A stretch of DNA of 64,000 bases from an uncultured Candidatus Saccharibacteria bacterium. GTDB taxonomy: Bacteria > Patescibacteriota > UBA1384 > XYA2-FULL-43-10 > 1-14-0-10-43-13. Shown piece by piece: positions 13,338-61,006 of the stretch. The stretch covers positions 799 through 64,798 of the forward strand of contig CAYQPT010000003.1 in assembly GCA_964419835.1 (NCBI GenBank), in the 5' to 3' direction. The notes beneath the pieces are model-generated. The model had not been told where the DNA came from, did no database searches, and was given only the letters and a program-made list of their open reading frames with translations. Within the stretch, counting starts at the first letter, position 1, and the number at the start of each line of letters is the position of its first letter. A program made the translations under genes and the position numbers.

Positions 13338-13452
13338 CATTCGTGGTCTTTATAGTACTAAAAATTTGTGTGCCATTGGCAGACATTTTTATTTTCTAGG
13401 AACTGCTGTACAATATAAGTATTAAATAATGTTCTAAAAAATGGAGGGTGAT

Positions 13453-14781
13453 ATGAAAAAAATTGGAGCAATGCTTTTTATAGGCATTTTTTCGTTGATG
13501 ACTTTTTGGGGGACAGCGAGTGCCGGCCCATCGGTTGACCAAAGCAACACAAAAATTGAAGATGCCTCAGCTTCCCTGTTGATGGATGCGCCTTATTATA
13601 GGGCTCAAACTTTCCGTCCCGACAGGCAGCATATAGATCAGATAGATATCTATTTAAAAGATAGAGCAGAGGGATCATGGGCACAGATTTATCTTTATAA
13701 TGAAACTAATCATCTAGAGATTGCTAATGTAGGTCATAGGATGGCCGCGGGAACTGGTTGGGAGACCTATCCTCTAAATGTTGACGTAACAGTAGGAGCG
13801 AGATACAGAATTAAACTAGTTGTTAATGCTTCAGGTGTTAAATGGCCTTTTACTACCGGGAATGTTTATATTCGGGGATCATTGTACTACGAAGAAAACA
13901 CTTATTATAGTGGAGCTGATTTTATATTTAGGACTTGGGGCACTGATCCCGTTGAGATGGTTGAGGAGCAAATCATTCCAGAGGACGGAACAGATGAGCC
14001 CGGAACGCCCGGAACGCCAGCGTCCATCCCTGGAACTGCTGAAGGGATAACCGTAGTGGCGGAAACTCCGACAGCGACAGTTGCAACATCAATCGCCAAA
14101 CCAACCGAATTAACCGCCGCTTACACCGATAGCGCAAAACTGACATGGAAAGCATCGACTACTACCGATATCACCGGTTACATCGTCTTCCGATCTGAAA
14201 CCAAGGGAAAGGGGTATACAAAGATAGCAGATGTGGCAAAAAATATATTAGAATATACTGACACAACAGCCGCTGCGTCAAAAACCTACTACTATGTTGT
14301 CAGGGCGGTAAAAGGGACAGTGCAGTCTGCCAGTTCCAATGAAGCAACAGTAGTTGTACCAGCGACCGCTCCGCCAATTGCTCCTCAAAATTTAAAAGTA
14401 AATTTGGTCCAAAGTTCATCCATAAATGTAACTTGGGATAAAAATCCAGAAGAAAATATTTCAGGATATACTTGCACCATTTCTCTCGAAGGCAAAGAGG
14501 TGGAAGTAAAAAATATCGGAGCGGATGACAATAATTGTCTTTTCTCTAATCTGATACCTGACGCAGATTACAAAATTGCCGTTATCGCCAAGAATTCATT
14601 GGGAGAATCCTCATCTCCTTCAGAGATAACACAAAAGACCGCTTTAGAAACTGTTGTCCAGAAAGAGCCAATATTGCCTTTGCTTCTCTGGGTGCTCCTA
14701 TCCTTTGCCGCCGCTCTTACAATAGTTCTAATGATAATGATCTGCCGCAGACATAAAAAAGCTAAACAGCAGTCAGTTTAA
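13453..14781 (+). CDS. secreted, C-terminally membrane-anchored protein with two fibronectin type III-like repeats
   Basis: Signal peptide MKKIGAMLFIGIFSLMTFWGTASA. Two FN3-like repeats (LTWKAS...YYYVVRAV and VTWDKNP...YKIAVIAKN). C-terminal TM helix followed by a basic tail. GGAGGGTG SD before the ATG at 13453. Confidence 0.7.
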   Translation: MKKIGAMLFIGIFSLMTFWGTASAGPSVDQSNTKIEDASASLLMDAPYYRAQTFRPDRQHIDQIDIYLKDRAEGSWAQIYLYNETNHLEIANVGHRMAAGTGWETYPLNVDVTVGARYRIKLVVNASGVKWPFTTGNVYIRGSLYYEENTYYSGADFIFRTWGTDPVEMVEEQIIPEDGTDEPGTPGTPASIPGTAEGITVVAETPTATVATSIAKPTELTAAYTDSAKLTWKASTTTDITGYIVFRSETKGKGYTKIADVAKNILEYTDTTAAASKTYYYVVRAVKGTVQSASSNEATVVVPATAPPIAPQNLKVNLVQSSSINVTWDKNPEENISGYTCTISLEGKEVEVKNIGADDNNCLFSNLIPDADYKIAVIAKNSLGESSSPSEITQKTALETVVQKEPILPLLLWVLLSFAAALTIVLMIMICRRHKKAKQQSV

Positions 14782-17716: not shown

Positions 17717-19147
17717 ATGTCGAAGAAGTCAAAAGGATTCCCAGTTCTGTTTCAGGCTGGGATGGGATCGAGAGTTTCAAGCTGGGTGATGGCCCGCATA
17801 GTTTCTATGCTGGGTGCACTCGGCGTTGTCTCTTCTGTCGGACTGCGCACAGTCATGATCGAGGAGGTTAGGCGAGGCAACCAAAAGGTGATCGAGATGG
17901 CCAAGAGGTTTCCATTTCCTGGCCATATCGAAGAGTTGCTGGCATTTGCCAAGGGATGCAAGTGGCACAAAAAGCCAGTCCCAATGGACCAGTTCGGTCC
18001 AAAAGGCGAGCTTGCCAAACGGCTGTCTACGATAGCCGCGTTCATTGAAGTGTCCTTGGCAAAAGAGGGGCACAACGGTCTGATCGGGATCAATGTGATG
18101 TGGAAGCTGCCGCTGACGGTGCTGCCGGTGATATACGGCGCAATGCTTGCAGGCGTCAATATCATCATTGCCGGGGCAGGGGTCCCGATGGAGCTACCAG
18201 CTATTGTCGAGGCAATCCGATCCGGTCAAGACCTGGCTTTCAAACTGGGGACGGACGCGGAATTCACTTTGCGGATTGTTCCTGGAACTTCTGAGCTCAT
18301 AAGCTCGCGTGACAGGCCGAAGCTGGCACCGATTTTGTCCAACTTTGTGTTTTGCAGAAAACTCAAGGATGGATGGAAAGAGAAATACGGCGTCGAGCCG
18401 GATTTCTTCATTCTTGAGGACTACAAGGCAGGCGGCCACAATGCTCCACCTCGTAACAAGGAAGTGCATTCCGTTGAGAAAGACGGGATCGACAGCTACT
18501 TCGACGAAGTCGTAGAGCTGGGAATTCCGGTGGTCGTCGCAGGCGCATTTGAGCACGGCGGAACACGGGCAGATCTGCTTTACTGGCAGAAGAGGGGCGC
18601 TCATGGGATCCAGGTCGGATCCCGGTTTGCTCTTTCTTCTGATTCAGGAATGCTCGAGATCTACCGTCATCAGATCCTTGAGCTCAACAAAGCAGGCAAG
18701 CTGGAGATAATAACCCGCATGTCGGACTCACCAACGGGTTATCCGATCAAGATGGCGGTCCTTCAAGGTACTCTAGCCGATCCCGAGATCTACCGTGCAC
18801 GCAGGCGTGCTTGCAAACAAGGGTACCTTCGTGAGGTGCACACCTATACTGACGAGTCTGGCCAGGAGGTCCAAGTACTGTCTTGTAAGGCCATGCCTCT
18901 TGATCAGTATATGGCCCTAAATCCAGACAAGACCAGAGAGCAGTGCGAGGAGGACTCTGACGGTAAGGTCTGTCTGTGCGACGGACTCTTGGGTGCGATT
19001 GGGTTCAAGGCCGTACCAGCGTACATAACGTTGGGCGAAAGTGGGAGGATACCAACTGAGGAAGAGTCTGCCCGGGAGATTGCCCTAGAGATTCTGACTC
19101 CGAGGGACGACGAGGATACAGGGATTGACCTACGACTTGCCGCCTAA
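17717..19147 (+). CDS. FMN-dependent nitronate monooxygenase / FabK-like oxidoreductase (COG2070 family) with a Cys-rich C-terminal extension; GC-rich, probably horizontally acquired
   Basis: FQAGMG...LGALGVVSS, GAGVP and LEDYKAGGHNAP resemble NMO/2-nitropropane dioxygenase motifs. About 55% GC against about 38% in the flanks. An SD-like AAAGGTGG precedes the ATG at 17717. Confidence 0.55.
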   Translation: MSKKSKGFPVLFQAGMGSRVSSWVMARIVSMLGALGVVSSVGLRTVMIEEVRRGNQKVIEMAKRFPFPGHIEELLAFAKGCKWHKKPVPMDQFGPKGELAKRLSTIAAFIEVSLAKEGHNGLIGINVMWKLPLTVLPVIYGAMLAGVNIIIAGAGVPMELPAIVEAIRSGQDLAFKLGTDAEFTLRIVPGTSELISSRDRPKLAPILSNFVFCRKLKDGWKEKYGVEPDFFILEDYKAGGHNAPPRNKEVHSVEKDGIDSYFDEVVELGIPVVVAGAFEHGGTRADLLYWQKRGAHGIQVGSRFALSSDSGMLEIYRHQILELNKAGKLEIITRMSDSPTGYPIKMAVLQGTLADPEIYRARRRACKQGYLREVHTYTDESGQEVQVLSCKAMPLDQYMALNPDKTREQCEEDSDGKVCLCDGLLGAIGFKAVPAYITLGESGRIPTEEESAREIALEILTPRDDEDTGIDLRLAA

Positions 19148-22642: not shown

Positions 22643-23755
22643 ATGGCATTACTAGAAGAAATCGAACCTCCGTCGTATAAAAATACTACGGATAAAACAA
22701 AAAATCTAAAAAAAGACACTGAAAATAAATATCAGCTTGTTCCTTCCGCCAGCTGGCGGATTCAACTATTCCTGACAAGAAGTTTTGATAAAATCCGAAC
22801 CATTTCGGGTAGTTTCAAAACCCTTTCTTCCTACTCTCTAAGATCTGTCAGGAATTTTATTTTGAGCAATAAATACCTACCTCACGCAGTATTGGCCGTG
22901 CTGGGTCTTTTGGTTGCGATGACGAATCTTGGCGAGAAATTGCAGGCAAACGCATTTTATCAGGACATTGTTTCAACAGGTCCTGACGCTGAGTTTGCAG
23001 TTGCCAGCGCTGTCAGCCCATTTACTCCGCTTATTAAAAATGCCCCTGAGCTTGTGGACAAAGCCGCTGCCGCCTCAGTTTCGTCGGATGGATTTACAAG
23101 CGCCACTACCTCTGTTGATACCATAATCACGGCAAGGCAAGAGCCCTTGCCGGACAATTCCGCTCAAACAGTCAAATATACTGTTAAGAATGGTGATACG
23201 CTCTCAATGATCGGCATGGAATTTGATGTAAAAATCGCCACTTTAAAATATTTAAATGACATAAGTGATGTTGATATGCTGAAGCCGGGCTCAACCATCA
23301 AAGTTCCTCAAAAAGGATATGAAGTTTCCGCGTCTGCGATTGCCAAGAAAGAAAATGACAAAAAAGCCAAATTAGCCGCAGCTCAGAGAAATACTGTTGC
23401 CAGAAGCACCACCTCTTCCAGATACTCCAATACAACGCAAGGTGTTGCCACTATCAATGGTGTCAGATATGTTAGAAAAGCAAAAAGCAACGAAATGCAG
23501 TGTTACACATATGTAACATCACAGGGTTACGGCGTTGGCGGTTATGGACTGGCTCGTTTTATTCCTACTAATTCAAAATCTCCCAAGGTTGGCGGACTTG
23601 TGGTTACTTACGAAAGTTGGGCCGGACATGTAGCCGTTGTTACAGGGGTTAACGGAGACGGTACATTTAACATCCGCGAGAGCAACTATACCCACGGTTG
23701 GATTACAGAACGGACAATGTCCATGGGCAAAGGAATAAAAGGGTTTGTGAACTAA
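22643..23755 (+). CDS. LysM-domain plus CHAP-domain peptidoglycan hydrolase with an N-terminal membrane anchor
   Basis: LysM motif YTVKNGDTLSMIGMEFDVKIATLKYLNDISDVDMLKPGSTIKVP. C-terminal CHAP domain (QCYTYV...GHVAVV...). TM helix AVLAVLGLLVAMT. Confidence 0.8.
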   Translation: MALLEEIEPPSYKNTTDKTKNLKKDTENKYQLVPSASWRIQLFLTRSFDKIRTISGSFKTLSSYSLRSVRNFILSNKYLPHAVLAVLGLLVAMTNLGEKLQANAFYQDIVSTGPDAEFAVASAVSPFTPLIKNAPELVDKAAAASVSSDGFTSATTSVDTIITARQEPLPDNSAQTVKYTVKNGDTLSMIGMEFDVKIATLKYLNDISDVDMLKPGSTIKVPQKGYEVSASAIAKKENDKKAKLAAAQRNTVARSTTSSRYSNTTQGVATINGVRYVRKAKSNEMQCYTYVTSQGYGVGGYGLARFIPTNSKSPKVGGLVVTYESWAGHVAVVTGVNGDGTFNIRESNYTHGWITERTMSMGKGIKGFVN

Positions 23756-23786
23756 ATAATTGCTAATTCTCCATAAAATGCGAAAA

Positions 23787-23814
23787 CCCCACAGCATTGC
23801 TGTGGGGTTTTCTG
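23787..23814. terminator. bidirectional rho-independent terminator (9 bp perfect stem CCCCACAGC/GCTGTGGGG, A-run on one side and T-run on the other)
   Basis: GCGAAAACCCCACAGCattGCTGTGGGGTTTTCT. Confidence 0.8.
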
Positions 23815-23913
23815 GCTTTCGTCGCAATTTTCAGCGACTCATCGGAACACTTGTGTGTTGAGCCAAGAGATACCGGGGGTGATATCTCAAGGGTAAATCT
23901 TGAGCCATGAGGC

Positions 23914-26939: not shown

Positions 26940-29900
26940 ATGGCAAAGAAAACTAGCGAAATGGAGAGAATTATCCCACGACCAGTTGAAGCATGGGAAT
27001 CACTCCCGAATCTCGTTGAGATTCAAACTAAATCCTACGATTGGTTCTTTAAAGAAGGATTGAACGAGCTTTTCGATGAAATTTCACCGATCGAAGACTT
27101 TACCGGCGAACTTTACTCACTTTCTTTCGGCAAATACTTCCTTGAGAAGCCAAAAGTTGATGAGAAAACCGCTAGAGAAAAGAATTTGACCTACAAAGCC
27201 CCTCTCCGCGTTCAGGTTTCCCTGCTTAATAAAAAGACCAAAGAAATCAAAGACGGTGAAGTTTTCTTGGGAGATTTTCCGCTGATGACCGATGTCGGCA
27301 CTTTCATTATCAATGGTGTTGAAAGAGTTGTCGTTTCTCAGATTGTCCGTTCCTACGGTGTATTATTTACTGCTGACAAAGTTAACGGCGAAAACTACTT
27401 CGGTGCCAAAGTTATTCCTTCAAGAGGTGCTTGGCTTGAAATCGAGACAAACTCCAAAGGTGTTATTTCGGTAAAGGTTGACCGAAAACGAAGAATTCCT
27501 ATTACCACATTCTTGCGCTCTCTTGGCATAGGCGACGAAGCAGAAATGAAAGCTCTCTTTTCAGATGTTGATGACAATGACGAGCTCAATTACATTGATG
27601 CAACTTTAGCTAAAGATCCCGCAAGCAACTACGAAGAAGGATTGGTTGAAACATATAAACGAATCCGTCCTGGTGACCTGGCTACTGCAGAATCAGCAAA
27701 ACAATTTATTGAAGCAATGTTCTTCAACCCAAAGAGATATGATTTGGGCAGAGTCGGCCGCTATAAGCTTAATCAGCGGCTTGATTTAAATGTGGAGAAC
27801 ACTCCTCTTAACAGAATAATGCGAAAAGAAGACTTAATTGAGGTTATTCGCGAGATTATCCGATTAAACAACACTCCCGGAGCAGAGCCGGACGATACGG
27901 ATAGCTTGAAGAACCGAAGAATTAGAGCCGTTGGAGAATCAATCCAAGGCCGTGTTCGAGTCGGTCTTCTTCGAGTAGAGAGAATTGTCAAAGACAGAAT
28001 GAGCATTTGTGATCCTGTTGAAGTTACTCCTTCCGCTCTTGTTAACTCCCGTCCGGTTGTTGCCGCACTTCAGGAATTCTACGCCAGCTCTCAGCTTTCA
28101 CAGTTTATGAACCAAACGAACCCGCTTTCAGAGCTTGAGCATAAAAGAACTCTTTCCGCTACCGGTCCCGGTGGTCTCTCGCGAGAGCGCGCCGGCTTCG
28201 AAGTAAGAGATGTTCACTCTACTCACTACGGTCGAATTTGTCCGATTGAATCTCCTGAAGGTCCAAACATTGGTTTGGTTTCATATCTTGCCTGTTATTC
28301 ACGAATAAACGAATACGGTTTTCTGGAAACTCCTTATAGAAAAGTAAAAATTGAAAATGGCAAAGCCAAAGTTACCCACGAGATCGTCTACATTGACGCC
28401 GGCACAGAGGAAAAAGCGATTATTGCTCCCGCTTCAGTCGAGATTGATAAAGACGGCTACATTGTCGGCAAAAGGGTAATTGTTAGAAAGTATTCCGAAC
28501 CGGAAATTGAAGATGCACTCAAAGTGCAGTACATGGACATCTCGCCTCGGCAGATCGTCTCGATTGCAACTTCACTCATTCCTTTTGTAGAGCACGATGA
28601 CGGTGCAAGGGCGATGATGGGATCGAATATGCAACGACAGGCCGTTCCGCTCATTTGCCCCGATTCTCCAATCGTCGGCACCGGAATGGAAAAGAACGCC
28701 GCCAAAGACTCCGGCCAGATTGCAGTAGCTGAAAAGGACGGTGAAGTAATTCATGTTTCGTCCGATTTGATAAAAGTCAGAGATAAAGACGGCCAAACAG
28801 AAGAATATTTACTCGAAAAATTTGTTCGTTCAAACCAAGGTACTTCCATCAATCAGCGTCCGACCGTTAATCTTGGTGACAAGGTTAAAAAAGGACAGGT
28901 TATTGCCGATTCCTCCGCTACAGACAATGGTGAATTGGCACTCGGCCAAAACCTTATGGTCGCCTTCATGTCATGGGGCGGAAACAACTTTGAAGACGCT
29001 ATAATCCTTTCAAACCGAATCGTAAAAGATCATGTATTATCCTCAGTTCACATCGAACAATATTCAATTGAAGTGCGCGACACCAAATTGGGTCCTGAGG
29101 TTTTAACCCGCGACATCCCAAATGTTTCAGAAGAAGCTCTTTCAAACTTGGATGAAATGGGTGTTGTCCGAATTGGCGCTGAAGTTAAATCGGGCGACAT
29201 TTTGATCGGAAAAATTTCTCCAAAGGGTGAAACCGAACTTACTTCAGAGGAAAAGCTTCTTCGCGCAATCTTCGGCGAAAAAGCTAAAGATGTACGAGAC
29301 TCATCCCTTAGATTGCCTCATGGCGAATACGGCAAGGTTGTTGAAGTTAAAATGTTCTCCAAGGAAGCCGGAGATGAGCTTCCAGCCGGTGTATATCAAA
29401 TGGTAGAAGTTTCAGTAGCACAGCTTAGAAAAATTTCAATCGGTGATAAATTAGCCGGACGACACGGTAATAAAGGTGTTATTTCAGTAATCCTGCCACA
29501 GGAAGACATGCCGTTTATGCCTGATGGAACTCCAGTTGATGTTGTTTTGAACCCGCTTGGTGTTATTTCCCGTATGAATGTCGGCCAGATTTTGGAAACT
29601 CACCTTGGACTAGCAGCTAAGCATGGCGGATATAAGATTGCCACGCCGGCTTTCGAAGGCATTACTATTGATGAAATAAAGTCACGGCTTAAGACAGAAG
29701 GATATGGGGAAGACGGAAAAATCCAACTTTATGATGGCGAAAGCGGTGAACCATTTGCAAGAAAATCCACGGTCGGGATTATGTACATATTGAAGCTTCA
29801 TCACTTGGTTGATGACAAGATGCATACTCGTTCAGTCGGTCCTTACTCAATGATTACTCAGCAGCCACTTGGTGGTAAAGCCCAGTTCGGTGGGCAGAGA

Positions 29901-30302
29901 TTCGGAGAGATGGAAGTTTGGGCGCTTGAAGCTTACGGCGCAGCTCATACTCTTCAGGAAATGCTTACAATCAAATCTGACGATGTTGTTGGACGAAGCA
30001 AAACATACGAATCAATTATTAAGGGTGAGAAGATACAAAAGCCGCTTATCCCAGAAGCGTTCAATGTTATGGTGAAGGAACTTCAGAGCTTGGGCTTAAA
30101 GGTGGATCTTTTGGCACCGAAAATTGATCCAAACGCAATCGAAGACGAAATAGTAAGCCCTGTAGTATTAAAAACAGAAAAAGAGGATTCTCTTCCAATT
30201 GAAAATGACGAAGATATTGACGAGAAGTTGACCGAGATTGCAGCTGAGCAAACCGGAGAAGATGAAGATATTGTTTCAGAAGAGATCGACGAAGATAAAT
30301 AA
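26940..30302 (+). CDS. rpoB: DNA-directed RNA polymerase subunit beta (compact form)
   Basis: Conserved RpoB blocks throughout, for example [30 protein letters not shown] and [20 protein letters not shown]. Length is 1120 aa. Confidence 0.97.
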
Positions 30303-30427
30303 ATAATTAGGTAACGGTTAGGGCAACGATGCCCGTATCGGCTAGGTTGTTTGGTAGCGTAACCGTAACCCATCCGCCAGCTGGCGGAACGATACTGGTT
30401 TCGTAACCGATTAACGAAAACCGATAA
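30303..30427 (+). repeat. about 120 bp hairpin-rich intergenic element, copy 1 (after rpoB), core palindrome CCGCCAGCTGGCGG
   Basis: Near-identical to 34810-34934. It contains hairpins GGGCA-acga-TGCCC and TTCGT...ACGAA, and a closing helix GGTAACGG/CCGTAACC. Confidence 0.85.
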
Positions 30428-30458
30428 AAATTAGAATAATTTACTCCGAAGGAGTCAT

Positions 30459-33400
30459 ATGGCGAACATAGAAATTAAAGACCAGCTTAATGCAACCGAC
30501 TTTGAGGCAATTCAACTTTCTGTTGCCTCATCAGACGACATTCTAGCATGGTCTCACGGTGAAGTTTTAAAGCCGGAAACAATCAACTACCGTACACAAA
30601 AGCCGGAAAGAGACGGTCTTTTCTGCGAAAAAATCTTCGGTCCGACTAAGGACTGGGAATGTTATTGTGGAAAATACCGGAAGATCCGTTACAAAGGCGT
30701 TGTCTGCGACAAGTGCGGCGTTGAAGTAACAAGGTCATCAGTAAGACGCGTACGGCTTGGCCATATTGACCTTGCTGTTCCAGTTTCTCATATCTGGTAC
30801 GCAAAAGGTGCTTCCAGTATTGTTTCTATGATTTTAGATATGACTACTTCCGATTTGGAAAAAGTCGTCTATTTTGCCAGCTTCGTAACACTCTCAGTTA
30901 ATGAGGATCTAAAGAAGGCCAGCATGGAAGGTCTTGAGAAAGAGTATAAAGAATATCTGGAAGAAATAAAGAAATCGGGTGCAGAATCCGAGATTACAAA
31001 AGAAGATGTCGAGATTGCTTACAAATCGGCAAAAACTGAATTAAACGGTCTCACAATTGGAAAAATAATCTCTGAGCAGGTATATCATGAACTAAATATG
31101 AAATACGGCCAGATTATTGAAGTCGGCATTGGCGCTGAAGCAATTCTTAAACTGCTTAAGAATCTAGATATCGACAAAGAAACCGTTAGAGCTAAAGACG
31201 AATCCAAAAAACAGATCGGTTTGCAACGGGGCAAAATGCTAAAACGGCTTCGAGCTTTGACAAACCTAAAAGCAGCTAACATTGACCCCGCTTCACTCAT
31301 CTTAACCCGCCTGCCAGTTATTCCGCCGGATTTACGTCCAATGGTTCAGCTTGACGGTGGACGATTTGCCGCTTCCGACTTAAACGATCTTTATAGAAGA
31401 GTTTTGAACAGGAATAACCGGCTAAAGCGGCTTATGTCTCAGGGCGCTCCTGAGGTTATCTGTCGAAATGAGAAGAGAATGCTGCAGGAAGCTGTTGATG
31501 CTGTGATTGACAACTCAGCCAGAAAAGGCAAAGTTGCCTCATCGGCAGGAGGAAAAAGAAAATTGCGCTCACTTTCAGATATGCTTCGAGGCAAACAGGG
31601 ACGATTCCGACAGAACTTGCTTGGAAAACGTGTAGACTATTCAGGACGATCAGTTATTGTTGTTGGTCCACGGCTTAAGCTGCATCAGTGTGGTCTTCCT
31701 AAAATTATGGCTTTGGAGCTATTTAAACCGTTCATTATCGGACGGCTTATTTCCGATGGCTATGTACACAATGTTAAAAACGCAACCAGATTAATTGAAA
31801 GAGGCGAGTCATTTGTTTGGGATATTCTGGAAGATATTATTAAAGATAAATATGTTCTTCTAAACCGCGCCCCAACACTTCACAGACTTGGTATCCAGGC
31901 ATTCCAGCCGATCTTGATTGAAGGTAAAGCCATTCAAATTCATCCGCTCGTCTGTGCGGCTTTCAATGCTGACTTTGACGGGGACCAGATGGCCGTTCAT
32001 GTACCTTTGTCCGACAAGGCACAGGAAGAAGCCAGAACCATCATGCTTTCAGCCAATAACCTCTTAAAACCGGCTTCAGGTGATCCTGTGGTTACTCCTT
32101 CGTACGATATGATTTTGGGCGCCTTCTATGTTACCAAAATGGAAGAAAAAGCTAAGGGAACCGGTATGGTATTTAAGTCGGAAGATGAAGCTATTTCTGC
32201 TTATGACGGCGGTAACATTGATCTTGGTGCAAAAATAAAAGTCCGGCTAAACACTAAAGAAATTGTTGAAACTACAGTCGGCAGAATTATTTTTAACGAG
32301 ATTATTCCTAATGAACTTGGTTTCATAAACGACATATTCAATAAAAAGGCAATCTCCAAATTGGTTGACAAGATTTACCGTCAATTAGGAACGGAGAGAA
32401 CAGCTCAATTTGTAGATGACTTAAAGGATTTGGGCTTCAAATACGCTCAAAAGTCCGGATTAACCTTTGCCGTTGACGATATTCACATCCCTTCAACCAA
32501 AGCGGCTATCCTCAAGTCTTCAGAAGACCAGCTTTCAATTATCGACAAACAGTATCAAAGGGGTCTTATTACCGACGAAGAAAGATACGCCAAAACAATT
32601 GAGCTTTGGATGAACGCTCAGGGCCAGATCGAAAAAGATATGATGGATCAATACTCAAAGGAAAATGACCTTTTCATTGTTATGACATCAGGTGCCAGAG
32701 GTAATGTTGCTCAGATGATTCAGGTTGCCGGCATGAAGGGGCTCGTTGCAGATACAACCGGTTCCATTATAGAACTTCCGATTAAATCAAACTTTAAAGA
32801 AGGTCTCTCCGTATTTGAGTATTTTAACTCAACCCACGGCTCCCGAAAAGGCCGAGCTGACACCGCTCTTCGAACTTCAGAAGCAGGTTATTTGACTAGA
32901 AGATTGGTTGATGTTTCTCAAGACACAGTTATTACTGAAGATGATTGTAAGAGCAAAAACGGAAGAATTATTTCCAGGGAATTTTATGCTGCGCTGGGTG
33001 AAAAGTGGGACAAATACCTTCTTGGCAGAGTTTTGTCAAAAGCCGCTGCGGGCGTTAAGGAAGGCACGATAATTACTCACGCCGAGGTCGAGAAATTTGA
33101 TACCGCAAAGCTAAACGAAATTGAAATAAGATCACTTCTTGGTTGTCATGCTAAACGGGGCGTCTGTAAAGCATGTTATGGCCTAGACTTGGCGACAGGT
33201 AAGTTGGTCGAAGCTGGCGCAACTGTTGGTATTGTTGCGGCTCAGGCAATCGGCGAACCTGGAACACAGCTTACCATGCGTACCTTCCATACTGGTGGTG
33301 CTGCTGGTGAAGATATCACTACCGGCTTGCCTCGAGTTGAAGAGCTTTTTGAGTCTAGAGTACCCAAGAAACCGGCAATCCTCTCAGAAATTGACGGCAA

Positions 33401-34184
33401 GGTAGTCATTCGAACAGAAAAAGACGGATCTATTTTGACCGTGTCGGGTAAGGGAGAAAAATCAGAAGCTATCAGCTTAACTGAAGGATACAACTGGGTC
33501 GTTGAGGACGGATCAAAGCTTAAAGCAAAACAGATTATTGCTGAAAAAGAAGGTGAAAAGCCAATCAGAAGCAAAGTTAACGGCGAGATCAGATTGAATA
33601 ATCGAAAAGCCATTATTAATAGCGCCGGCAACATTGTCCGCGAATACTCTGTCGGAAGATTGACTCAGCTTAAAGTCAAAGACGGCGATTTGGTTTCCAA
33701 GGGTCAGCCATTGACTGAAGGACATTATGATTTGTCCATGAGCTTAAAGTTTGCTGGAAGATCAAAAACCATCAACTATATCATCAAGCAGGTACAGTCA
33801 ATTTATGAGTCTCAGGGACAAGATATTAACGACAAGCACCTTGAGGTTATTGTCCGATTGATGCTTTCCAAAGTTAAGATTACACTTTCCGGAGATTCAA
33901 AACTTCTTCCGGGACAGGTCACAAACTTGGTGGATGTTGAGTTGATTAATCAAAAACTTGAAAAAGAAGGCAAGAAGAAAGCCGATTTTGAGGACATCAT
34001 CATGGGTATCACCCGTGTGGCCTTAAAGACCGAAAGTTTCCTTTCAGCAGCTTCCTTCCAAGAAACCACAACCGTTTTGATCGAAGCAGCAACTTCTGCA
34101 AAAATTGATCATTTGCGCGGTCTTAAGGAAAATGTAATTATCGGTAAATTGATCCCAGCTGGAACCGGCCTGAATCAATCGTAG
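30459..34184 (+). CDS. rpoC: DNA-directed RNA polymerase subunit beta-prime
   Basis: Zinc finger CX2C...CX2C near the N-terminus, the NADFDGDQM catalytic motif, and trigger loop and bridge helix regions. Confidence 0.97.
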   Translation: MANIEIKDQLNATDFEAIQLSVASSDDILAWSHGEVLKPETINYRTQKPERDGLFCEKIFGPTKDWECYCGKYRKIRYKGVVCDKCGVEVTRSSVRRVRLGHIDLAVPVSHIWYAKGASSIVSMILDMTTSDLEKVVYFASFVTLSVNEDLKKASMEGLEKEYKEYLEEIKKSGAESEITKEDVEIAYKSAKTELNGLTIGKIISEQVYHELNMKYGQIIEVGIGAEAILKLLKNLDIDKETVRAKDESKKQIGLQRGKMLKRLRALTNLKAANIDPASLILTRLPVIPPDLRPMVQLDGGRFAASDLNDLYRRVLNRNNRLKRLMSQGAPEVICRNEKRMLQEAVDAVIDNSARKGKVASSAGGKRKLRSLSDMLRGKQGRFRQNLLGKRVDYSGRSVIVVGPRLKLHQCGLPKIMALELFKPFIIGRLISDGYVHNVKNATRLIERGESFVWDILEDIIKDKYVLLNRAPTLHRLGIQAFQPILIEGKAIQIHPLVCAAFNADFDGDQMAVHVPLSDKAQEEARTIMLSANNLLKPASGDPVVTPSYDMILGAFYVTKMEEKAKGTGMVFKSEDEAISAYDGGNIDLGAKIKVRLNTKEIVETTVGRIIFNEIIPNELGFINDIFNKKAISKLVDKIYRQLGTERTAQFVDDLKDLGFKYAQKSGLTFAVDDIHIPSTKAAILKSSEDQLSIIDKQYQRGLITDEERYAKTIELWMNAQGQIEKDMMDQYSKENDLFIVMTSGARGNVAQMIQVAGMKGLVADTTGSIIELPIKSNFKEGLSVFEYFNSTHGSRKGRADTALRTSEAGYLTRRLVDVSQDTVITEDDCKSKNGRIISREFYAALGEKWDKYLLGRVLSKAAAGVKEGTIITHAEVEKFDTAKLNEIEIRSLLGCHAKRGVCKACYGLDLATGKLVEAGATVGIVAAQAIGEPGTQLTMRTFHTGGAAGEDITTGLPRVEELFESRVPKKPAILSEIDGKVVIRTEKDGSILTVSGKGEKSEAISLTEGYNWVVEDGSKLKAKQIIAEKEGEKPIRSKVNGEIRLNNRKAIINSAGNIVREYSVGRLTQLKVKDGDLVSKGQPLTEGHYDLSMSLKFAGRSKTINYIIKQVQSIYESQGQDINDKHLEVIVRLMLSKVKITLSGDSKLLPGQVTNLVDVELINQKLEKEGKKKADFEDIIMGITRVALKTESFLSAASFQETTTVLIEAATSAKIDHLRGLKENVIIGKLIPAGTGLNQS

Positions 34185-34392
34185 ATTGATAAAATCCAAA
34201 ATTCGAATATCGAAATCCGAAACAAATTCGAATGACAAAAATTGAGAAATGTTTAAAACATTAGAAAATTAAGATTTATAATTTGTTTCGAACATTCGGG
34301 TTTCGTGCTTCGAGTTTGAGATGGTTAGAACAATTGACCGCAAGATAAATTTATGTTAAAGTGATAAAGTTAAATATCAATTTGAGAAAAAA

Positions 34393-34812
34393 ATGCCAAC
34401 AGTAAACCAATTAGTAAAATACGGTCGCAAAAAGACCAAAAATAAAACCAAAACTACCGCTATTAAGACAACTTTTAACTATCTAAAGAACAAACCGGTT
34501 AAGATTGATAGTGGTTGCCCTCAAAAGCGCGGTGTTTGTATTAAAGTCGGAACAATGACTCCTAAGAAACCAAACTCGGCTTTGCGTAAATTCGCCAGAG
34601 TACGGCTTACTAATGGTTTTGAAGTAAATGCATATATTGGCGGAGAAGGCCATCAGCTTCAGGAACACTCGGTTGTGCTTATCCGTGGCGGTCGTGTAAA
34701 AGACCTTCCCGGTATGCGATATCATATTGTCCGTGGTAAGCTTGATTTAACTGGTGTAAAAGACCGCAAGAAAGCCCGAAGCAAATACGGCGTTAAAAAA
34801 GCAGTAGAGTAA
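34393..34812 (+). CDS. rpsL: 30S ribosomal protein S12 with an N-terminal insertion of about 25 aa
   Basis: PQKRGVC...[10 protein letters not shown]...RLTNGFEV...[12 protein letters not shown]...[19 protein letters not shown]. An extra [26 protein letters not shown] segment is present relative to typical S12. Confidence 0.95.
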
Positions 34813-34934
34813 ATAAGGTAACGGCTAGGGTAACGATGCCCGTATCGGTTAGGTTGTTCGGTAACGCAGCCGTAACCCATCCGCCAGCTGGCGGAACGAT
34901 ACTGGTTTCGTAACCGATTAACGAAAAACGATAA
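34810..34934 (+). repeat. about 120 bp hairpin-rich intergenic element, copy 2 (between rpsL and rpsG)
   Basis: About 93% identical to 30303-30427. Compared with copy 1, two sub-sites exchange C and T in a correlated way. Confidence 0.85.
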
Positions 34935-34941
34935 GGAAATC

Positions 34942-35418
34942 ATGAGTAGAGGAAATGCAAAAACAAAGCAGCACAGAATAACACCTGACGCCAAATACGA
35001 CAGCGTTATTTTGGCAAAGTTTACCAACTACATCATGCTAAACGGCAAAAAGACTGTTGCAGAAAAGACAGTTCATGCTGCGTTAAAGCATGCCAATGAA
35101 AAGATAAATGCTCCTGAAATGGATATTTTTGATCAGGCATTGAAAAATGTCGGACCAATTCTAGAAGTAAAAAGCAAGCGAATCGGTGGTGCAAACTACC
35201 AAGTCCCCATTGAAGTTTCGAAAGACAGAAGAAATACTTTGGCAATGCGCTGGATAATTTCCGCAGCCAGATCAGGCAAAGGAAAACCAATGTCAGAAAA
35301 ACTTGCTGCTGAGTTCATCAATGCATACAACGGTGAAGGCGCAGCCATGAAGAAGAAACAGGAAACACACAGAATGGCAGAAGCCAATAAAGCATTTGCT
35401 CATTTCGCACGGTTCTGA
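34942..35418 (+). CDS. rpsG: 30S ribosomal protein S7
   Basis: S7 family sequence (MSRGNAKTKQHRITPDAKYDSVILAKFTNYIMLNGKKTVAEKTV...). Confidence 0.95.
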   Translation: MSRGNAKTKQHRITPDAKYDSVILAKFTNYIMLNGKKTVAEKTVHAALKHANEKINAPEMDIFDQALKNVGPILEVKSKRIGGANYQVPIEVSKDRRNTLAMRWIISAARSGKGKPMSEKLAAEFINAYNGEGAAMKKKQETHRMAEANKAFAHFARF

Positions 35419-37752: not shown

Positions 37753-38117
37753 GGGTATGAGAGTAGCAAAGCAAGTTAACTTAATCGTTATGATTTATCA
37801 TAAATATAAAAAATACCTGCAAAAAAGCAGGATTTTTATGTATTTGGTATTATTGAGGGGAGGCGGCTGGCAAGACCGGGGAGGTCTATGCCAGCATGTT
37901 TTGGGGATCGAAAGAAGTCGAATCCAATAGGGGTCTTTGAGGTAATCCCGATAGCTAACTACCGATTGTCGTTTCTGATAGAGTAGCTACCGTAATGAAG
38001 TAGCCAAATCTTTGGTCTCTACAACAAAGAAGTGGCAATGCTGCGACTCGTGCATCTTGCACTCCTCACAACAGCCTTATTTTCGCACAAATTGAGATCA
38101 AAGTCAAGCGTGTCCGA

Positions 38118-38146
38118 TTGACATTTGAGCGCTAGTATGCTATAAT
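38118..38146 (+). promoter_or_regulatory. perfect consensus sigma70 promoter TTGACA-17 bp-TATAAT inside the GC-rich island
   Basis: TTGACA at 38118-38123 and TATAAT at 38141-38146, followed by a 120 nt GC-rich leader with a CCCCTAAGGGG hairpin. Confidence 0.55.
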
Positions 38147-38270
38147 ACTAAAGTAATCTGCTGGAGAAGGGTTCCCCTAAGGGGATCTCATCTCGGGCAG
38201 GCAACATTAGGCAACTGCTCGACATCACATCCGGCCCAGGTCGGATTTCCACGGAAGGACTGGTGAGAGA

Positions 38271-38627
38271 ATGTTCAGAGACAGAAGGTTCATCGCGGTT
38301 GTGCTGCTTGCGTTAGTGGTTGGAGGAGTGTGGGGACTGTTCCACAACGACGTTTTGGGCACCAAGCGTGCTCGAGCCAACTACAATGAAGGTGTCAGAG
38401 CCTTCAAAGCCGACCTGAACGGTCGCGTATGGGTTTCTCACAAGATTCGCACGGGCGAAGGATATTACGACGCCTGTGTGGTCTCCGGATTTCACAAGGA
38501 GATAACGGATTATCGGCGTGATGTGATCGAGGAAACGCTTCAAGCGTATCCCCTTAACACTCACATCGATGTTACCTTTCTCCACCCCGGAGATGTTGTC
38601 TGGGTGCCTGTCGGTCGAGACGACTGA
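38271..38627 (+). CDS. hypothetical signal-anchored small protein (GC-rich island ORF)
   Basis: N-terminal TM helix RRFIAVVLLALVVGGVWGLF. Lies downstream of the perfect promoter. Coding status is uncertain. Confidence 0.35.
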   Translation: MFRDRRFIAVVLLALVVGGVWGLFHNDVLGTKRARANYNEGVRAFKADLNGRVWVSHKIRTGEGYYDACVVSGFHKEITDYRRDVIEETLQAYPLNTHIDVTFLHPGDVVWVPVGRDD

Positions 38628-39603
38628 TTGGCCCGCAAGTGGCTTCGGTCACAGAGTAGTTTCCCGAGCGTGCTTTCACGCTCGGGAACATCCCCCTTTT
38701 CTTCTCATGTGTGGAATCAGTTGAATTCATCATGAGCAGAGAAAGAAACGTCTGCCGGTTAGGGGAAGAAAGATGAAATTGCATCGCATTATTTACGTCT
38801 TCATTGTCCTTTCCACCTTCCAGTATGCTCGTGTGTGGAACGGCGACCTTGCGTCGTATGTACGTTTACACACGAACAATCATGGATACGCGGCATTATC
38901 CGCGTTGCTGGCCTACCTGACAGAACTCGCTCTTGCGAGCTGGGTAATGGTAACAATAACCGCGCGCGAGCGACAGGACCAAGCCAGAGAGAAGGTCAGC
39001 AATGCTGGCCCTCGAGCGCCTGGCCCGAACGATGTAGCGCCTCTCTAAACTAGCAGAGTCGCTAACCGGCTTTGCATTGACTGCTTCCCGAGTGAGGTTA
39101 TGGAGAATTAGAATGCGAACAACAGTAGTTGTCGACTCAACGAGGAGAGATAGCTGCACAAATGGGACCGATTCCCCGACAATACTGGGGCTCAAAGAGG
39201 CCCTCGAACTCATCAAAGTGATGATCGAGGACACCGGTCAGATGTTCGCAGCTCTCCCTCTTACGTATGGCCAGAAAGGAGACTGGCCGACGAAGTACAT
39301 CATATATTCTGCGCACTATATGGCAGGATAATATGATAACTCGTCATGGACCGGTCCGCACGTACGGGTGCGGACCATTAACCTCGAGAATCGAATCATC
39401 CGCCAGCTGGCGGATTGGATTTTCGAGAGTTGATTAAATAACTGATTAGATCCCTTGTTCATCAAAATAGTTTGATGAAGTAGAGGACTAATTAAGAGAG
39501 ATATCCACACCTTACGAGGTGTGATTTTTTTACACAAAAATGTTTTGGGTGTAGAATTGGGGTGGAGAAATTCTCTGATAGTTCTACCGACAGGGGGTAC
39601 GAT

Positions 39604-39870
39604 ATGTTCACGGAAATGTCACGGGATCATTTCTATCTGCTAGTACAGACAGCCGTACTACTCATCTCTGCTCTGCTTGCTCTGCAGTACTTCGGACTCA
39701 ATGCGATTGTCCATTCTTGGCACACTTGGGTCTTAATGGGTGCTCTCGTGCTATGCTGGCTGAACGCCATACTTCGTAATGGCAGGCCACTGTCTTGGGA
39801 ACCGAGCGCACTCTTGATGTTCGTGCTGGTAGCTCTCAGCTGCATCCAGGTAGGGGTAGGCAAGCATTAG
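39604..39870 (+). CDS. hypothetical small membrane protein (GC-rich island ORF; the ORF extends upstream to 39562)
   Basis: Three hydrophobic helices. GGGGGT lies 5 nt before the ATG at 39604. Confidence 0.3.
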   Translation: MFTEMSRDHFYLLVQTAVLLISALLALQYFGLNAIVHSWHTWVLMGALVLCWLNAILRNGRPLSWEPSALLMFVLVALSCIQVGVGKH

Positions 39871-40232
39871 GTTCTCATTCTGCAGGCATTAGTAATCCTG
39901 CAAACCCGTCCTGCACTATTCAGTGCAGGTTCGAGGTTTGTAGCAGATTTGTACCATATGCGATAGGATCTCTCGCCTTCCTCGATCCACCCACCGGTGG
40001 GCTCGTAATGGGTCGGGATGACAGGGGGGGGTTGTTGGGGGAAACAATTGACAGCGCAGGAAAAATTATGTTATTATTGCTCTGAAAGAGGGGCGTTTTT
40101 GTTTTTACTACGTAAAAAAATTCTTAATTTTTAAGTATTAATTTCTAAATTAAGTCCAAAATTTATTAAAATATTTAAAATTGAATAAAAATTTAAAATT
40201 ATAAATTAGAAATTCAATTCCGAAGGAATTCC

Positions 40233-43699: not shown

Positions 43700-43790
43700 A
43701 TTTTCAGTTGTCAGTAAATCAGTAAATCGGTTGTCAGTTCTTATACTTACAACTGATTCACTTACAACTTACAACTAGTAATATCGTTCG
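43700..43790 (+). repeat. intercistronic imperfect palindrome of tandem heptamers (GTAAATCAG arm / CTTACAACT arm) after tuf
   Basis: CAGTTGTCAGTAAATCAGTAAATCGGTTGTCAG...ACTTACAACTGATTCACTTACAACTTACAACT. Confidence 0.75.
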
Positions 43791-43855
43791 CAGTGGGGCC
43801 TAATCTAAAATTGGGCTTCACACGAAAAGTATCAACATAATTCAAGAAAAAAGAA

Positions 43856-46687: not shown

Positions 46688-46761
46688 ATCAGTAAATCAG
46701 TTGTCAGTAAATCAGATACAAAACTTACAACTTATTCACTTACAACTTACAACTTAAAATC
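46688..46761 (+). repeat. intercistronic heptamer-repeat palindrome (GTAAATCAG / CTTACAACT family) after rplD
   Basis: ATCAGTAAATCAGTTGTCAGTAAATCAG...AACTTACAACTTATTCACTTACAACTTACAACTT. Confidence 0.75.
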
Positions 46762-48330: not shown

Positions 48331-48429
48331 ATATTAATCAAGTAGTCAGTAAATCAGTTGTCAGTAAATCAGCAGATATAAAACTTACAACTTATTCACT
48401 TACAACTTACAACTTACAACTGAAATATT
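48331..48429 (+). repeat. intercistronic heptamer-repeat palindrome (GTAAATCAG / CTTACAACT family) after rpsS
   Basis: AGTAGTCAGTAAATCAGTTGTCAGTAAATCAGCAG...AAACTTACAACTTATTCACTTACAACTTACAACTTACAACTG. Confidence 0.75.
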
Positions 48430-50917: not shown

Positions 50918-50999
50918 TCAGTAAATCAGTAAATAAGTAAATCAGTAAATAAGTTCAAAACAGACAACTGATTCACTGACAACTGACAACTAAAACAAC
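50918..50999 (+). repeat. intercistronic heptamer-repeat palindrome (GTAAATMAG / CTGACAACT family) after rplN
   Basis: CAGTAAATCAGTAAATAAGTAAATCAGTAAATAAG...CAACTGATTCACTGACAACTGACAACT. Confidence 0.75.
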
Positions 51000-59257: not shown

Positions 59258-59404
59258 ATGAAGGTTCAGTCATCCGTTAAAAAAATCTGCGATAAATGTA
59301 AGATTATCATTAGAAGCAAAAAGGGCAAATCAAAGCGTGTAAGTTCAAAGAAACGCTTGTTTGTCATCTGCTCTAATCCAAAGCATAAACAGAGACAAGG
59401 ATAA
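59258..59404 (+). CDS. rpmJ: 50S ribosomal protein L36 with an 11 aa insertion in the zinc-ribbon loop (48 aa; not in the ORF track)
   Basis: [48 protein letters not shown]: C-x2-C...C-x4-H L36 pattern. Lies between infA and rpsM in the conserved position. Confidence 0.8.
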
Positions 59405-59406
59405 AT

Positions 59407-59793
59407 ATGGCCCGAATAGCTGGTGTTAACATTCCAAACGAAAAAAGAATTGAGATAGGTCTAACCTATGTATTTGGTATTGGTCCGTCTACGAGTAAGA
59501 AAATTCTTAGCCAGACCAGCATTAATCCCGATATTCGCGTTAAGGATTTGACAGAATCAGACTTGGAAAAAATCCGGAATATTATAGGAAAAAACATTCG
59601 AGTTGAAGGCGACCTTAAGATGGAGGTTACTCAGAATATTAAGCGCTTAAAAGAGATTAATTCATATAGGGGAACTCGGCATTTGAGAGGGCTGCCAGCA
59701 AGAGGACAAAGAACAAAGACAAATGCCAGAACCAAAAGAGGCAAAAAAGTAACAGTCGGATCAGGAAGAAAAGCTGCAGCACAAAAAACATAA
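59407..59793 (+). CDS. rpsM: 30S ribosomal protein S13
   Basis: [30 protein letters not shown]... Confidence 0.96.
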
Positions 59794-60384: not shown

Positions 60385-60978
60385 ATGATAGACGCATGCA
60401 AAAAATGTAGAAGAGAAGGCGAGAAGTTACTCCTTAAAGGTGAGCGATGTTTGGGACCAAAATGTGCAGTCGTAAAAAGACCCTATGCACCAGGTCAACA
60501 TGGACAAGCTCGTTTTACTAAAATGAGTGAGTATGGAAAGCAGCTCAGGGAAAAACAAAAAGCCCGACGCATTTATGGTATGGGAGAAACTCAGTTTGCT
60601 AATTACGCTGAAGCAGCCGGAAAAGCCGAGGGTAATACTTCATTAAACCTTATGAAATTGCTTGAAACACGTCTAGATAATGTTGTTTACAGACTAAACT
60701 TTGCAGATTCAAGATCAAAGAGCCGGCAAATGGTTTCTCATGGTCTTGTTCTTGTTAACGGCAAAAAGCTTTCACTTCCTTCATATCACTTAAAAGAAGG
60801 TGATGAAATTAGCTTAAAACACCCAGATAAAGAAGCCGATGCAAGAAAAGTAAATATTCCTTCATGGATGGAGCTAGATGCTAAAAAAGGTATCGGCAAA
60901 GTCAAACATATTCCAACGCGGGAAGAAATTGATACAACTGTGAATGAGAATTTAATAATTGAGTTTTACTCTAGATAA
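60385..60978 (+). CDS. rpsD: 30S ribosomal protein S4 (zinc-binding form)
   Basis: CKKCRREGEKLLLKGERCLGPKC zinc motif and an S4 domain. Confidence 0.95.
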   Translation: MIDACKKCRREGEKLLLKGERCLGPKCAVVKRPYAPGQHGQARFTKMSEYGKQLREKQKARRIYGMGETQFANYAEAAGKAEGNTSLNLMKLLETRLDNVVYRLNFADSRSKSRQMVSHGLVLVNGKKLSLPSYHLKEGDEISLKHPDKEADARKVNIPSWMELDAKKGIGKVKHIPTREEIDTTVNENLIIEFYSR

Positions 60979-61006
60979 TCCGCCAGCCGGCGGAACAGGA
61001 GATATT

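Follow-up and report, generated by a model that had tools for sequence, protein, structure and literature searches.

A duplicated hairpin element in the rpoB/rpoC and rpsL/rpsG spacers of an uncultured Candidatus Saccharibacteria bacterium is probably a composite palindromic repeat

Repetitive extragenic palindromes (REPs) carry a GTAG or CGTC tetranucleotide tag at one end, and the Rickettsia palindromic elements (RPEs) are CGTC-tagged units of 100-150 bp (PMC3733652). At the RNA level, Correia transcripts are cut by RNase III, and ERIC (enterobacterial repetitive intergenic consensus) elements alter mRNA decay (PMC10969869). Here, we analyzed a hairpin-rich element of 112 nt that occurs twice, once behind rpoB and once behind rpsL, in 64,000 nt of the 65.6-kb contig CAYQPT010000003.1 from an uncultured Candidatus Saccharibacteria bacterium (assembly GCA_964419835.1; the whole stretch is referred to as the window). 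The RpoB protein encoded in the window matches only proteins from metagenome-assembled genomes that are labelled Patescibacteria or Berkelbacteria, which places the bacterium near Berkelbacteria. The two segments are probably a lineage-specific composite palindromic repeat that was copied into two nearby spacers and is built on a REP-like core. Sequence comparison speaks against a conserved function of the long element in controlling the rpoBC and str operons.

The duplicated element and its fold

The segments at 30305-30427 and 34812-34934 of the window form a gapless 123-nt pair with 93% identity according to a repeat search, in agreement with a MAFFT alignment. Their similarity opens at the stop codons of rpoB and rpsL (TAAATAA) and ends 31 nt 5' of the rpoC ATG and 7 nt 5' of the rpsG ATG. 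The initial annotation of this DNA had described the pair in much the same terms, as a duplication of about 93% identity that begins at the upstream stop and ends shortly before the next start.

Within each copy, a small 5' hairpin is followed by a long imperfect hairpin of 91 nt, the tip of which is a 16-nt perfect palindrome, TCCGCCAGCTGGCGGA, referred to below as the core (coordinates and folding energies are collected in Table 1). When each long hairpin was folded alone, none of 200 shuffled sequences folded as well, and the sense strand of the element folds 2.3-4.8 kcal/mol better than the antisense strand. The 3' flanks of both copies are A-rich, with no U-tract behind either. A scan for terminators omitted both long copies as well as the core copy in front of rpoA, which bears out the initial statement that the element is not an intrinsic terminator.

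The copies differ at eight positions, four located in helices and four unpaired. Some of these differences had been annotated as correlated exchanges. The differences are real, but the positions concerned do not pair together: one turns a C-G pair of the small hairpin into U-G, and two are unpaired. Four sub-hairpins had also been named (GGGCAACGATGCCC, CCGCCAGCTGGCGG, TTCGT..ACGAA, and GGTAACGG/CCGTAACC, which forms 7 of 8 pairs); all of them exist, but the last two compete with the 91-nt hairpin.

An assembly artefact was considered and ruled out, as Logan contigs from three other sequencing runs contain both copies and are 100% identical to the window. All of those contigs break off within copy 2, and the start of one lies within copy 1. 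Breaks of this kind are how de Bruijn assemblies behave at a true repeat. Three contigs from different runs (L002, L004, and L007; runs SRR8925824, SRR10769903, and SRR10769896) all stop at 34846/34847, 28 nt into copy 2. Assuming 31-mer unitigs, this is earlier than two copies alone would force, so that a further copy, or a variant with GGTAACGGCTAGGGTAACGATGCCCGTATC in common, may exist.

Orthologous junctions and flanking repeats

Both junctions were compared in relatives with readable DNA, and one further genome (P0009) contributed spacer lengths only. The rpoB/rpoC spacer, 156 nt long in the window, measures 29 nt in L009, 39 nt in both L012 and L221, 54 nt in L219, 101 nt in L220, 90 nt in the P0009 genome, and 201 nt in L011. 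The rpsL/rpsG spacer, 129 nt in the window, measures 79 nt in L009, 8 nt in L219, 83 nt in L221, 147 nt in L220, 136 nt in the P0009 genome, and more than 116 nt in L011, whose contig ends within it; L012 was compared at rpoB/rpoC only. With lengths ranging from 29 to 201 nt at the first junction and from 8 to 147 nt at the second, neither spacer is a constrained leader. The L012 contig (12253 nt) contains rpoB-rpoC and then rpsG, rpsL, and the rpoC end in reverse, an order that looks like an inverted-duplication misassembly in a public metagenome-assembled genome (MAG).

The long element was found in no relative with readable DNA, at either junction. In five contigs of a sister lineage that encode an identical RpsL and share 85% DNA identity with the window, an unrelated CA-rich spacer of 41 nt stands between rpsL and rpsG in place of the element. 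The rpoB/rpoC junction of L012 is an empty site: its 5' ATAAT and 3' AATTTACTCCRAGGAG..TCATATG align with the window over a gap of about 117 nt. The spacers of L220 are comparable in length to those of the window and unrelated to them in sequence, and in four genomes other than L011 the rpoB/rpoC and rpsL/rpsG spacers show no similarity to each other.

Both copies are flanked by short direct repeats, imperfect around copy 1 and exact around copy 2 (Table 1). L012 holds a single ATAATTTAAGA where the flank of copy 1 stands, and L009 has ATAAGG once, directly 3' of the rpsL stop. From their sequence, these direct repeats are compatible with target-site duplication or with microhomology-mediated copying; the flanks are AT-rich, and chance could also have produced them.

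[quoted passage not shown] Empty orthologous sites exist at rpoB/rpoC of L012 and in the L001-type contigs, L009, L219, and L221, all of which lack the element. Multiple copies at unrelated loci and a parent insertion sequence were not found, and the two full copies both flank rpoC-rpsL. As for other sources, the window contains no tRNA or tmRNA gene from which the element could have originated. An Rfam search of the window gave no match at gathering thresholds and nothing at the element with E values up to 5.

The core palindrome and its genomic setting

With up to one mismatch allowed, CCGCCAGCTGGCGG occurs at five sites in the window (22746, 30374, 34881, 39400, and 60980), versus 0.00 expected from shuffled sequences, and it is the only type present there among all 32 G/C-only hairpins with a 5-bp stem and a 4-nt loop. 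Four of the five copies are intergenic, the unit is only 16-19 nt long, and neither a GTAG nor a CGTC tag adjoins any of the five. The fifth copy lies in frame in a LysM/CHAP gene, where it occupies a variable N-terminal linker that reads NNYLNQF or similar in relatives.

The initial annotation had listed four of the five sites and missed the one in the LysM/CHAP gene. The 18-bp perfect palindrome that it reported is present, with a long hairpin around it. The copy before rpoA is likewise present, but at 60978-60996, one base off the position first given, and the distance of 12 nt is to the rpoA ATG and not to the Shine-Dalgarno (SD) sequence, since only 2 nt separate the end of the stem from AGGAG.

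A scan for ATCCGCCAGCYGGCGGAAC in one genome per species returned at least 118 loci. Among the matches listed, those in low-GC genomes are intergenic in 70 of 89 cases and adjoin unrelated genes; roughly half come from many Patescibacteria classes, and others from Bacteroidota and Bdellovibrionales. In high-GC genomes, the matches are located in coding DNA, where chance is a plausible explanation for them. In 86 low-GC loci, we counted 25 further CCGCC-N4-GGCGG copies beyond the seeded one, versus about 1 for any other stem, and nearly all of these extra copies read (T)CCGCCAGCTGGCGG(A). The control set, 80 rpoC loci (618 kb) that were unselected for the core and came from relatives 45-56% identical, contained no core hairpin. 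The orientation of the core relative to genes is only weakly biased among the matches listed (19 versus 12).

Two stronger statements about the core were rejected. Raw database counts do not prove its over-representation, as composition-matched control palindromes demonstrated; in low-GC contigs, one control palindrome had 9 matches and the core 10. Nor do flanking sequences generally extend the core helix in other genomes, where a clear extension (z below -2) characterizes a minority of about 13% of copies.

In Bacteroidota MAGs, the core is found within a larger conserved unit (TTGGCGGCAAGTGGAC.GCAC...TGTC-core-TTGTGAGTTT; L030 244-396, L097 2545-2698, L110 963-1187, and L053 7077-7222). The units are arranged either in tandem or in inverted pairs with a spacing of about 134 nt, and an upstream GGCGG could pair with the CCGCC of the core as an alternative structure. 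Group IIC introns target stem-loops. In L021, a core hairpin (1026-1044) is followed 1.9 kb downstream by a match to domain 5/6 of a group II intron (2928-3003), and in L029 a core hairpin (4376-4394) is 285 nt from a group I intron (4679-4929).

Hairpin spacers are the norm in the window, since many of its spacers form strong hairpins from other repeat families. The spacers of its ribosomal-protein operons are unusually long (75-215 nt), many fold with z scores of -4 to -6 relative to shuffled sequences, and they are made of other repeat families (D1-D12) with periodic units of 8-10 nt. Examples between about 42300 and 60400 are 43700-43855, 46688-46761, 48331-48429, and 50918-50999. In their layout, the 5' arm consists of AGTAAATCAG/AGTTGTCAGT units and the 3' arm of ACTTACAACT units that run up to the ATG, without an SD sequence. 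The same periodic-unit family is present in the rpsL/rpsG spacer of L009, a relative with 74% identity. The rpoB/rpoC and rpsL/rpsG element is one hairpin spacer among many in the window and the most GC-rich of them.

Table 1. Repeat features and neighbouring genes in the window
Feature	Position	Strand	Remarks
Composite hairpin element, copy 1 (TAACGG...GAAAACCG, 112 nt)	30312-30423	+	rpoB/rpoC spacer; insertion relative to L012
Composite hairpin element, copy 2	34819-34930	+	rpsL/rpsG spacer; absent from contigs with identical RpsL (L001, L003, L005, L006, L008)
Small 5' hairpin, copy 1 (GGGCAACGATGCCC)	30321-30334	+
Small 5' hairpin, copy 2	34828-34841		reads GGGTAACGATGCCC; C-G to U-G change
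Long imperfect hairpin, copy 1	30336-30426	+	about 30 pairs, core palindrome at tip; -35.7 kcal/mol, z -4.3
Long imperfect hairpin, copy 2	34843-34933	+	folds as copy 1; -35.0 kcal/mol, z -3.9
Left flank of copy 1 (ATAATTAGG)	30303-30311	+	imperfect recurrence ATAAAAATTAGA at 30424-30435; candidate target-site duplication
Left flank of copy 2 (ATAAGG)	34813-34818	+	exact recurrence at 34931-34936; candidate target-site duplication
Core palindrome TCCGCCAGCTGGCGGA, tip of copy 1	30373-30388	+
Core palindrome, tip of copy 2	34880-34895	+
Core palindrome in LysM/CHAP gene	22745-22760	+	in frame, encodes SASWRI
18-nt perfect palindrome	39398-39415	+	tip of unrelated long hairpin 39377-39434 in the 50% GC island; -30.7 kcal/mol, z -6.9
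Stand-alone core hairpin TCCGCCAGCCGGCGGA	60979-60994	+	fills rpsD stop to rpoA SD; -10.5 to -11 kcal/mol
gyrB, gyrA, infB	within the window		Pfam scans of open reading frames
LysM/CHAP gene and obg	within the window		Pfam scans of open reading frames
rpoB	26940-30302		stop codon 30300-30302
rpoC	30459-34184		ATG at 30459
rpsL	34393-34812		stop codon 34810-34812
rpsG	34942-35418		ATG at 34942
PBP-family gene and M50 peptidase gene	3' of rpsG		followed by the 50% GC island (about 37.9-40.1 kb)
fusA, tuf, ribosomal-protein operons	3' of the GC island		through rpsD and rpoA
rpsD	60385-60978
rpoA	61007-61963

The GC island between the M50 peptidase gene and fusA (about 37900-40100) has a GC content of 50%, compared with about 40% elsewhere in the window, and looks like acquired DNA. 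Within it are small open reading frames (ORFs) without a Pfam match, two consensus promoters (38118 and 40048), a number of strong hairpins, and a single canonical terminator at 39506-39523.

Two sub-threshold Rfam matches were recorded in other parts of the window. The alpha-operon S4-binding leader (RF00140) matches the plus strand at 59366-59439 with 30.4 bits versus a threshold of 38 (E 0.004); this match extends across the rpsM start (ATG at 59407). On the minus strand, 23811-23867 is a near-complete match to the type III hammerhead ribozyme (RF00008), with 34.1 bits versus a gathering score of 48.5 and an E value of 0.0016 on the whole window or 3.9e-6 on a 161-nt stretch. The three stems and the GAAA box are all present, the CUGAUGA box reads CCGAUGA, and the match adjoins a bidirectional terminator at 23785-23811.

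Competing readings and known systems

We hypothesize that, in this lineage only, a repeat of about 112 nt entered two spacers 4.5 kb apart by insertion or passed between them by copying. Each copy consists of a small 5' hairpin and a 91-nt imperfect hairpin tipped by a short dispersed palindrome comparable to REPs. An enzyme acting in trans and recognising either the hairpin or the ends of the element could have mobilised it, or ectopic gene conversion, seeded at the shared palindrome, could have transferred sequence between the spacers. Both copies have the sense orientation within operons, so they are presumably transcribed, and the RNA would fold as a stem-loop of about 30 pairs that separates two cistrons. 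REP, ERIC, and Correia sequences suggest by analogy that this stem-loop would most likely obstruct exonucleases passively or be cut by an RNase specific for double strands, and the relative stability of the flanking messages might be altered as a result. RNase III-type processing at an imperfect RNA helix of about 35 bp is plausible as a possible consequence, as distinct from an established function. A miniature mobile or repeat element, one of the candidates of the initial annotation, thus fits best, given the absence of the element in relatives, the empty site in L012, the flanking direct repeats, and the dispersed core.

A number of observations pull in the other direction. Only two full-length copies are known. 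Inverted similarity between the element ends is limited to about CGGTT (5-6 nt), which makes for very short terminal inverted repeats, and the boundaries of the direct repeats are ambiguous. No match to the element's arms was found elsewhere in the window or in about 470 fetched loci, where a short-word blastn search recovered only the core; a 24-mer covering the core and the 3' arm had no match in the scanned metagenome collection; and blastn of the element gave no phage match and, among plasmids, only one weak 35-nt match. No transposase was detected among the window ORFs, for which Pfam scans reported only housekeeping genes, and all-against-all blastp of ORFs within 2.5 kb of core copies revealed no neighbour family shared among 86 loci. 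In viral contigs, control palindromes (91, 30, and 94 matches) are about as common as the core (55), so the spread of the core across phyla rests on its clustering within genomes.

The copies themselves add to this side of the balance. All four helix differences keep pairing on the sense strand by exchanging a G-U pair for a Watson-Crick pair or the reverse. A one-sided change preserves pairing about half the time by chance, so that four of four would be expected in roughly 6% of cases without selection, which is suggestive. The differences are also unevenly distributed: the first 51 nt contain seven, and the 58 nt that follow are free of them (hypergeometric test, p about 0.004). The 58 identical nt comprise the distal 5' arm, the core, and most of the 3' arm. 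Such a pattern hints at recent gene conversion or stronger constraint, rather than neutral decay.

L011 (GCA_964363695.1, RpoB 88% identical) has a different repeat, which follows both rpoB and rpsL (local alignment score 53, compared with 12 ± 2 for shuffled sequences). We read the spacer sequences as a sign that each genome of the clade fills its spacers with its own repeat families, and it is conceivable that the rpoB/rpoC and rpsL/rpsG junctions are favoured for repeats. The L011 copies are at 13358-13558 and 17937-18052, with a third copy in another spacer (5495-5625); the repeat contains TTGACA-N15-TAGAAT, and the contig ends inside the second copy.

The last point on this side comes from the rpsD/rpoA spacer, which is kept at 27-28 nt in relatives with 100%, 85%, and 70% nucleotide identity. 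It reads TAA-TCCGCC-(AGCC/CGCA/AACT)-GGCGGA-..AGGAG, with the 12 stem bases invariant and the loop and adjacent bases variable, a pattern that argues for selection on the stem at this site. An invariant stem fits an RNA helix and a dimeric DNA-binding site equally well. In sample ERZ28617128 (loci L003 and L136), the rpsL/rpsG junction is without the long element, and the rpsD/rpoA hairpin is kept. An exact look-up returned no record of an identical RpsD protein. The initial annotation had named absence from the orthologous junctions of relatives as evidence that would count against its interpretation; this absence is what we observed for the 120-nt element, but not for the rpsD/rpoA hairpin.

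These observations leave some room, in our estimate a minor share, for the view that UCCGCC-loop-GGCGGA is a selected cis-element widespread in Patescibacteria and possibly in Bacteroidota. The hairpin would serve as a docking site for a putative protein that binds RNA, single-stranded DNA, or duplex DNA, and, placed after stop codons, would insulate or process cistrons. A working example would then be the rpsD/rpoA hairpin, with the 112-nt elements as extended forms of it recruited to rpoC and rpsG, within a clade-wide architecture of 80-200-nt hairpin spacers in ribosomal-protein operons.

Somewhat less likely still is a functional cis-regulatory RNA, in which an RNA-binding protein (a ribosomal protein, an RNA polymerase (RNAP) subunit, or a dedicated regulator) would act on the core to coordinate the translation or stability of rpoC, rpsG, and rpoA. 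On the sense strand, each of the three sites is preceded by a stop codon and followed by the next ribosome-binding site, and the conserved rpsD/rpoA stem, the pairing-preserving G-U exchanges, the better folding of the sense strand (by 2-5 kcal/mol), and the presence of one repeat at both junctions of L011 are what such an RNA would lead one to expect. Moreover, the E. coli rpsL/rpsG spacer is the site at which S7 represses translation. However, relatives from the sister lineage to more distant ones lack the long element at the two junctions, and the core also occurs in a coding region, in the alien island, and beside unrelated genes in many genomes. Four one-sided changes of the kind observed are not rare enough without selection to settle the matter, the stem never varies and so provides no covariation in support of an RNA structure, and Rfam has no match. 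The initial annotation had put forward an autoregulatory operator shared by RNAP and ribosomal cistrons, and three observations speak against it: the junctions are not conserved, no Rfam family matches, and the core is not gene-specific. For the long element a shared operator is not supported, and for the short core hairpin it has a low probability; some other role of the core hairpin at the RNA level is conceivable.

A DNA-level site appears improbable; in this view, TCCGCC-N4-GGCGGA would be the operator-like target of a dimer that binds DNA, either a transcription factor or a nucleoid protein of the ParB/Noc type, and the formation of long hairpins would be incidental. The core is a perfect 16-bp palindrome with half-site centres 10 bp apart; at rpsD/rpoA the half-sites are invariant and the central 4 bp free, which a dimer site and a stem-loop predict alike; and the scarcity of helix-extending flanks elsewhere, together with the small strand bias, would suit a duplex target. 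Nonetheless, three of the five window copies tip long helices whose arms differ in sequence and contain G-U pairs, which fits single-strand folding, the copies follow stop codons inside operons and are not at promoters, and no candidate binding protein was identified. Finally, a factor-independent attenuator or terminator that lowers read-through from rpoB to rpoC and from rpsL to rpsG is very unlikely: a stable GC-rich hairpin does stand directly 3' of the stop codons and a terminator-like scan picked up the core copy in the GC island, but the long copies and the rpoA copy have A-rich 3' flanks without a U-tract, rpoB and rpoC are needed in equal amounts, and the organism uses the canonical T-run terminators present elsewhere in the window (for example, 39506-39523 and 23785-23811).

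The duplication is real but fairly ordinary. If it is a composite palindromic repeat, as we favour, it adds a family of palindromic intergenic repeats to the tiny, streamlined genomes of Patescibacteria (candidate phyla radiation, CPR), where such repeats are hardly described, and it warns that they break short-read assemblies inside the most conserved operons. Literature searches in Patescibacteria or Saccharibacteria yielded no relevant work on terminators, MITEs, or palindromic repeats, and a search for the exact core palindrome found only an unrelated paper. The finding would matter more if the core hairpin were a selected element. Conservation at rpsD/rpoA, clustering of the core in CPR genomes, and the long folding spacers suggest that intercistronic RNA structure may tune expression within operons, a question that is testable with existing metatranscriptomes. 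The long periodic-repeat hairpin spacers are an unusual feature in a reduced genome and may hold more interest than the duplicated element.

Among the known systems, the S7 operator of E. coli rpsL-rpsG and other ribosomal-protein leaders resemble copy 2 in that a structured RNA lies between rpsL and rpsG. In contrast to them, the element is not conserved at this junction in relatives, is also present after rpoB, and matches no Rfam leader. The RPEs are comparable to the LysM/CHAP copy, being palindromic repeats that can stand in frame in protein-coding genes without destroying them, although here only the 16-nt core is intragenic.

ERIC and Correia/NEMIS (Neisseria miniature insertion sequence) repeats are, like the long element, imperfect palindromes of about 100-150 nt that lie in intergenic regions which are transcribed, presumably so for the element, are present or absent between relatives, and have short flanking direct repeats. 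Unlike them, the element has only two known full copies, very short terminal inverted repeats, a separate 5' hairpin outside the palindrome, and no known parent insertion sequence, and its hairpin tip is an independent repeat.

The core itself is comparable to the REPs and bacterial interspersed mosaic elements (BIMEs) of Enterobacteria and Pseudomonas, which are short GC-rich intergenic palindromes (20-40 bp per REP unit), often located just after stop codons in operons, occasionally within ORFs, transcribed as stem-loops, and variable in copy number between lineages (PMC3733652). It differs from REPs in that neither of its ends bears a GTAG or CGTC tag, in that its palindrome, only 16-18 nt long, is perfect and free of the mismatches that REPs have at the loop edge, and in that it recurs in several phyla, whereas REPs are usually species-specific; furthermore, no gene for a REP-associated tyrosine transposase (RAYT; IS200/IS605-type) was seen among the window ORFs. 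Since the REP tag is absent and the features of a MITE are present only in part, we describe the element as one that works like a REP or a MITE and file it in neither family.

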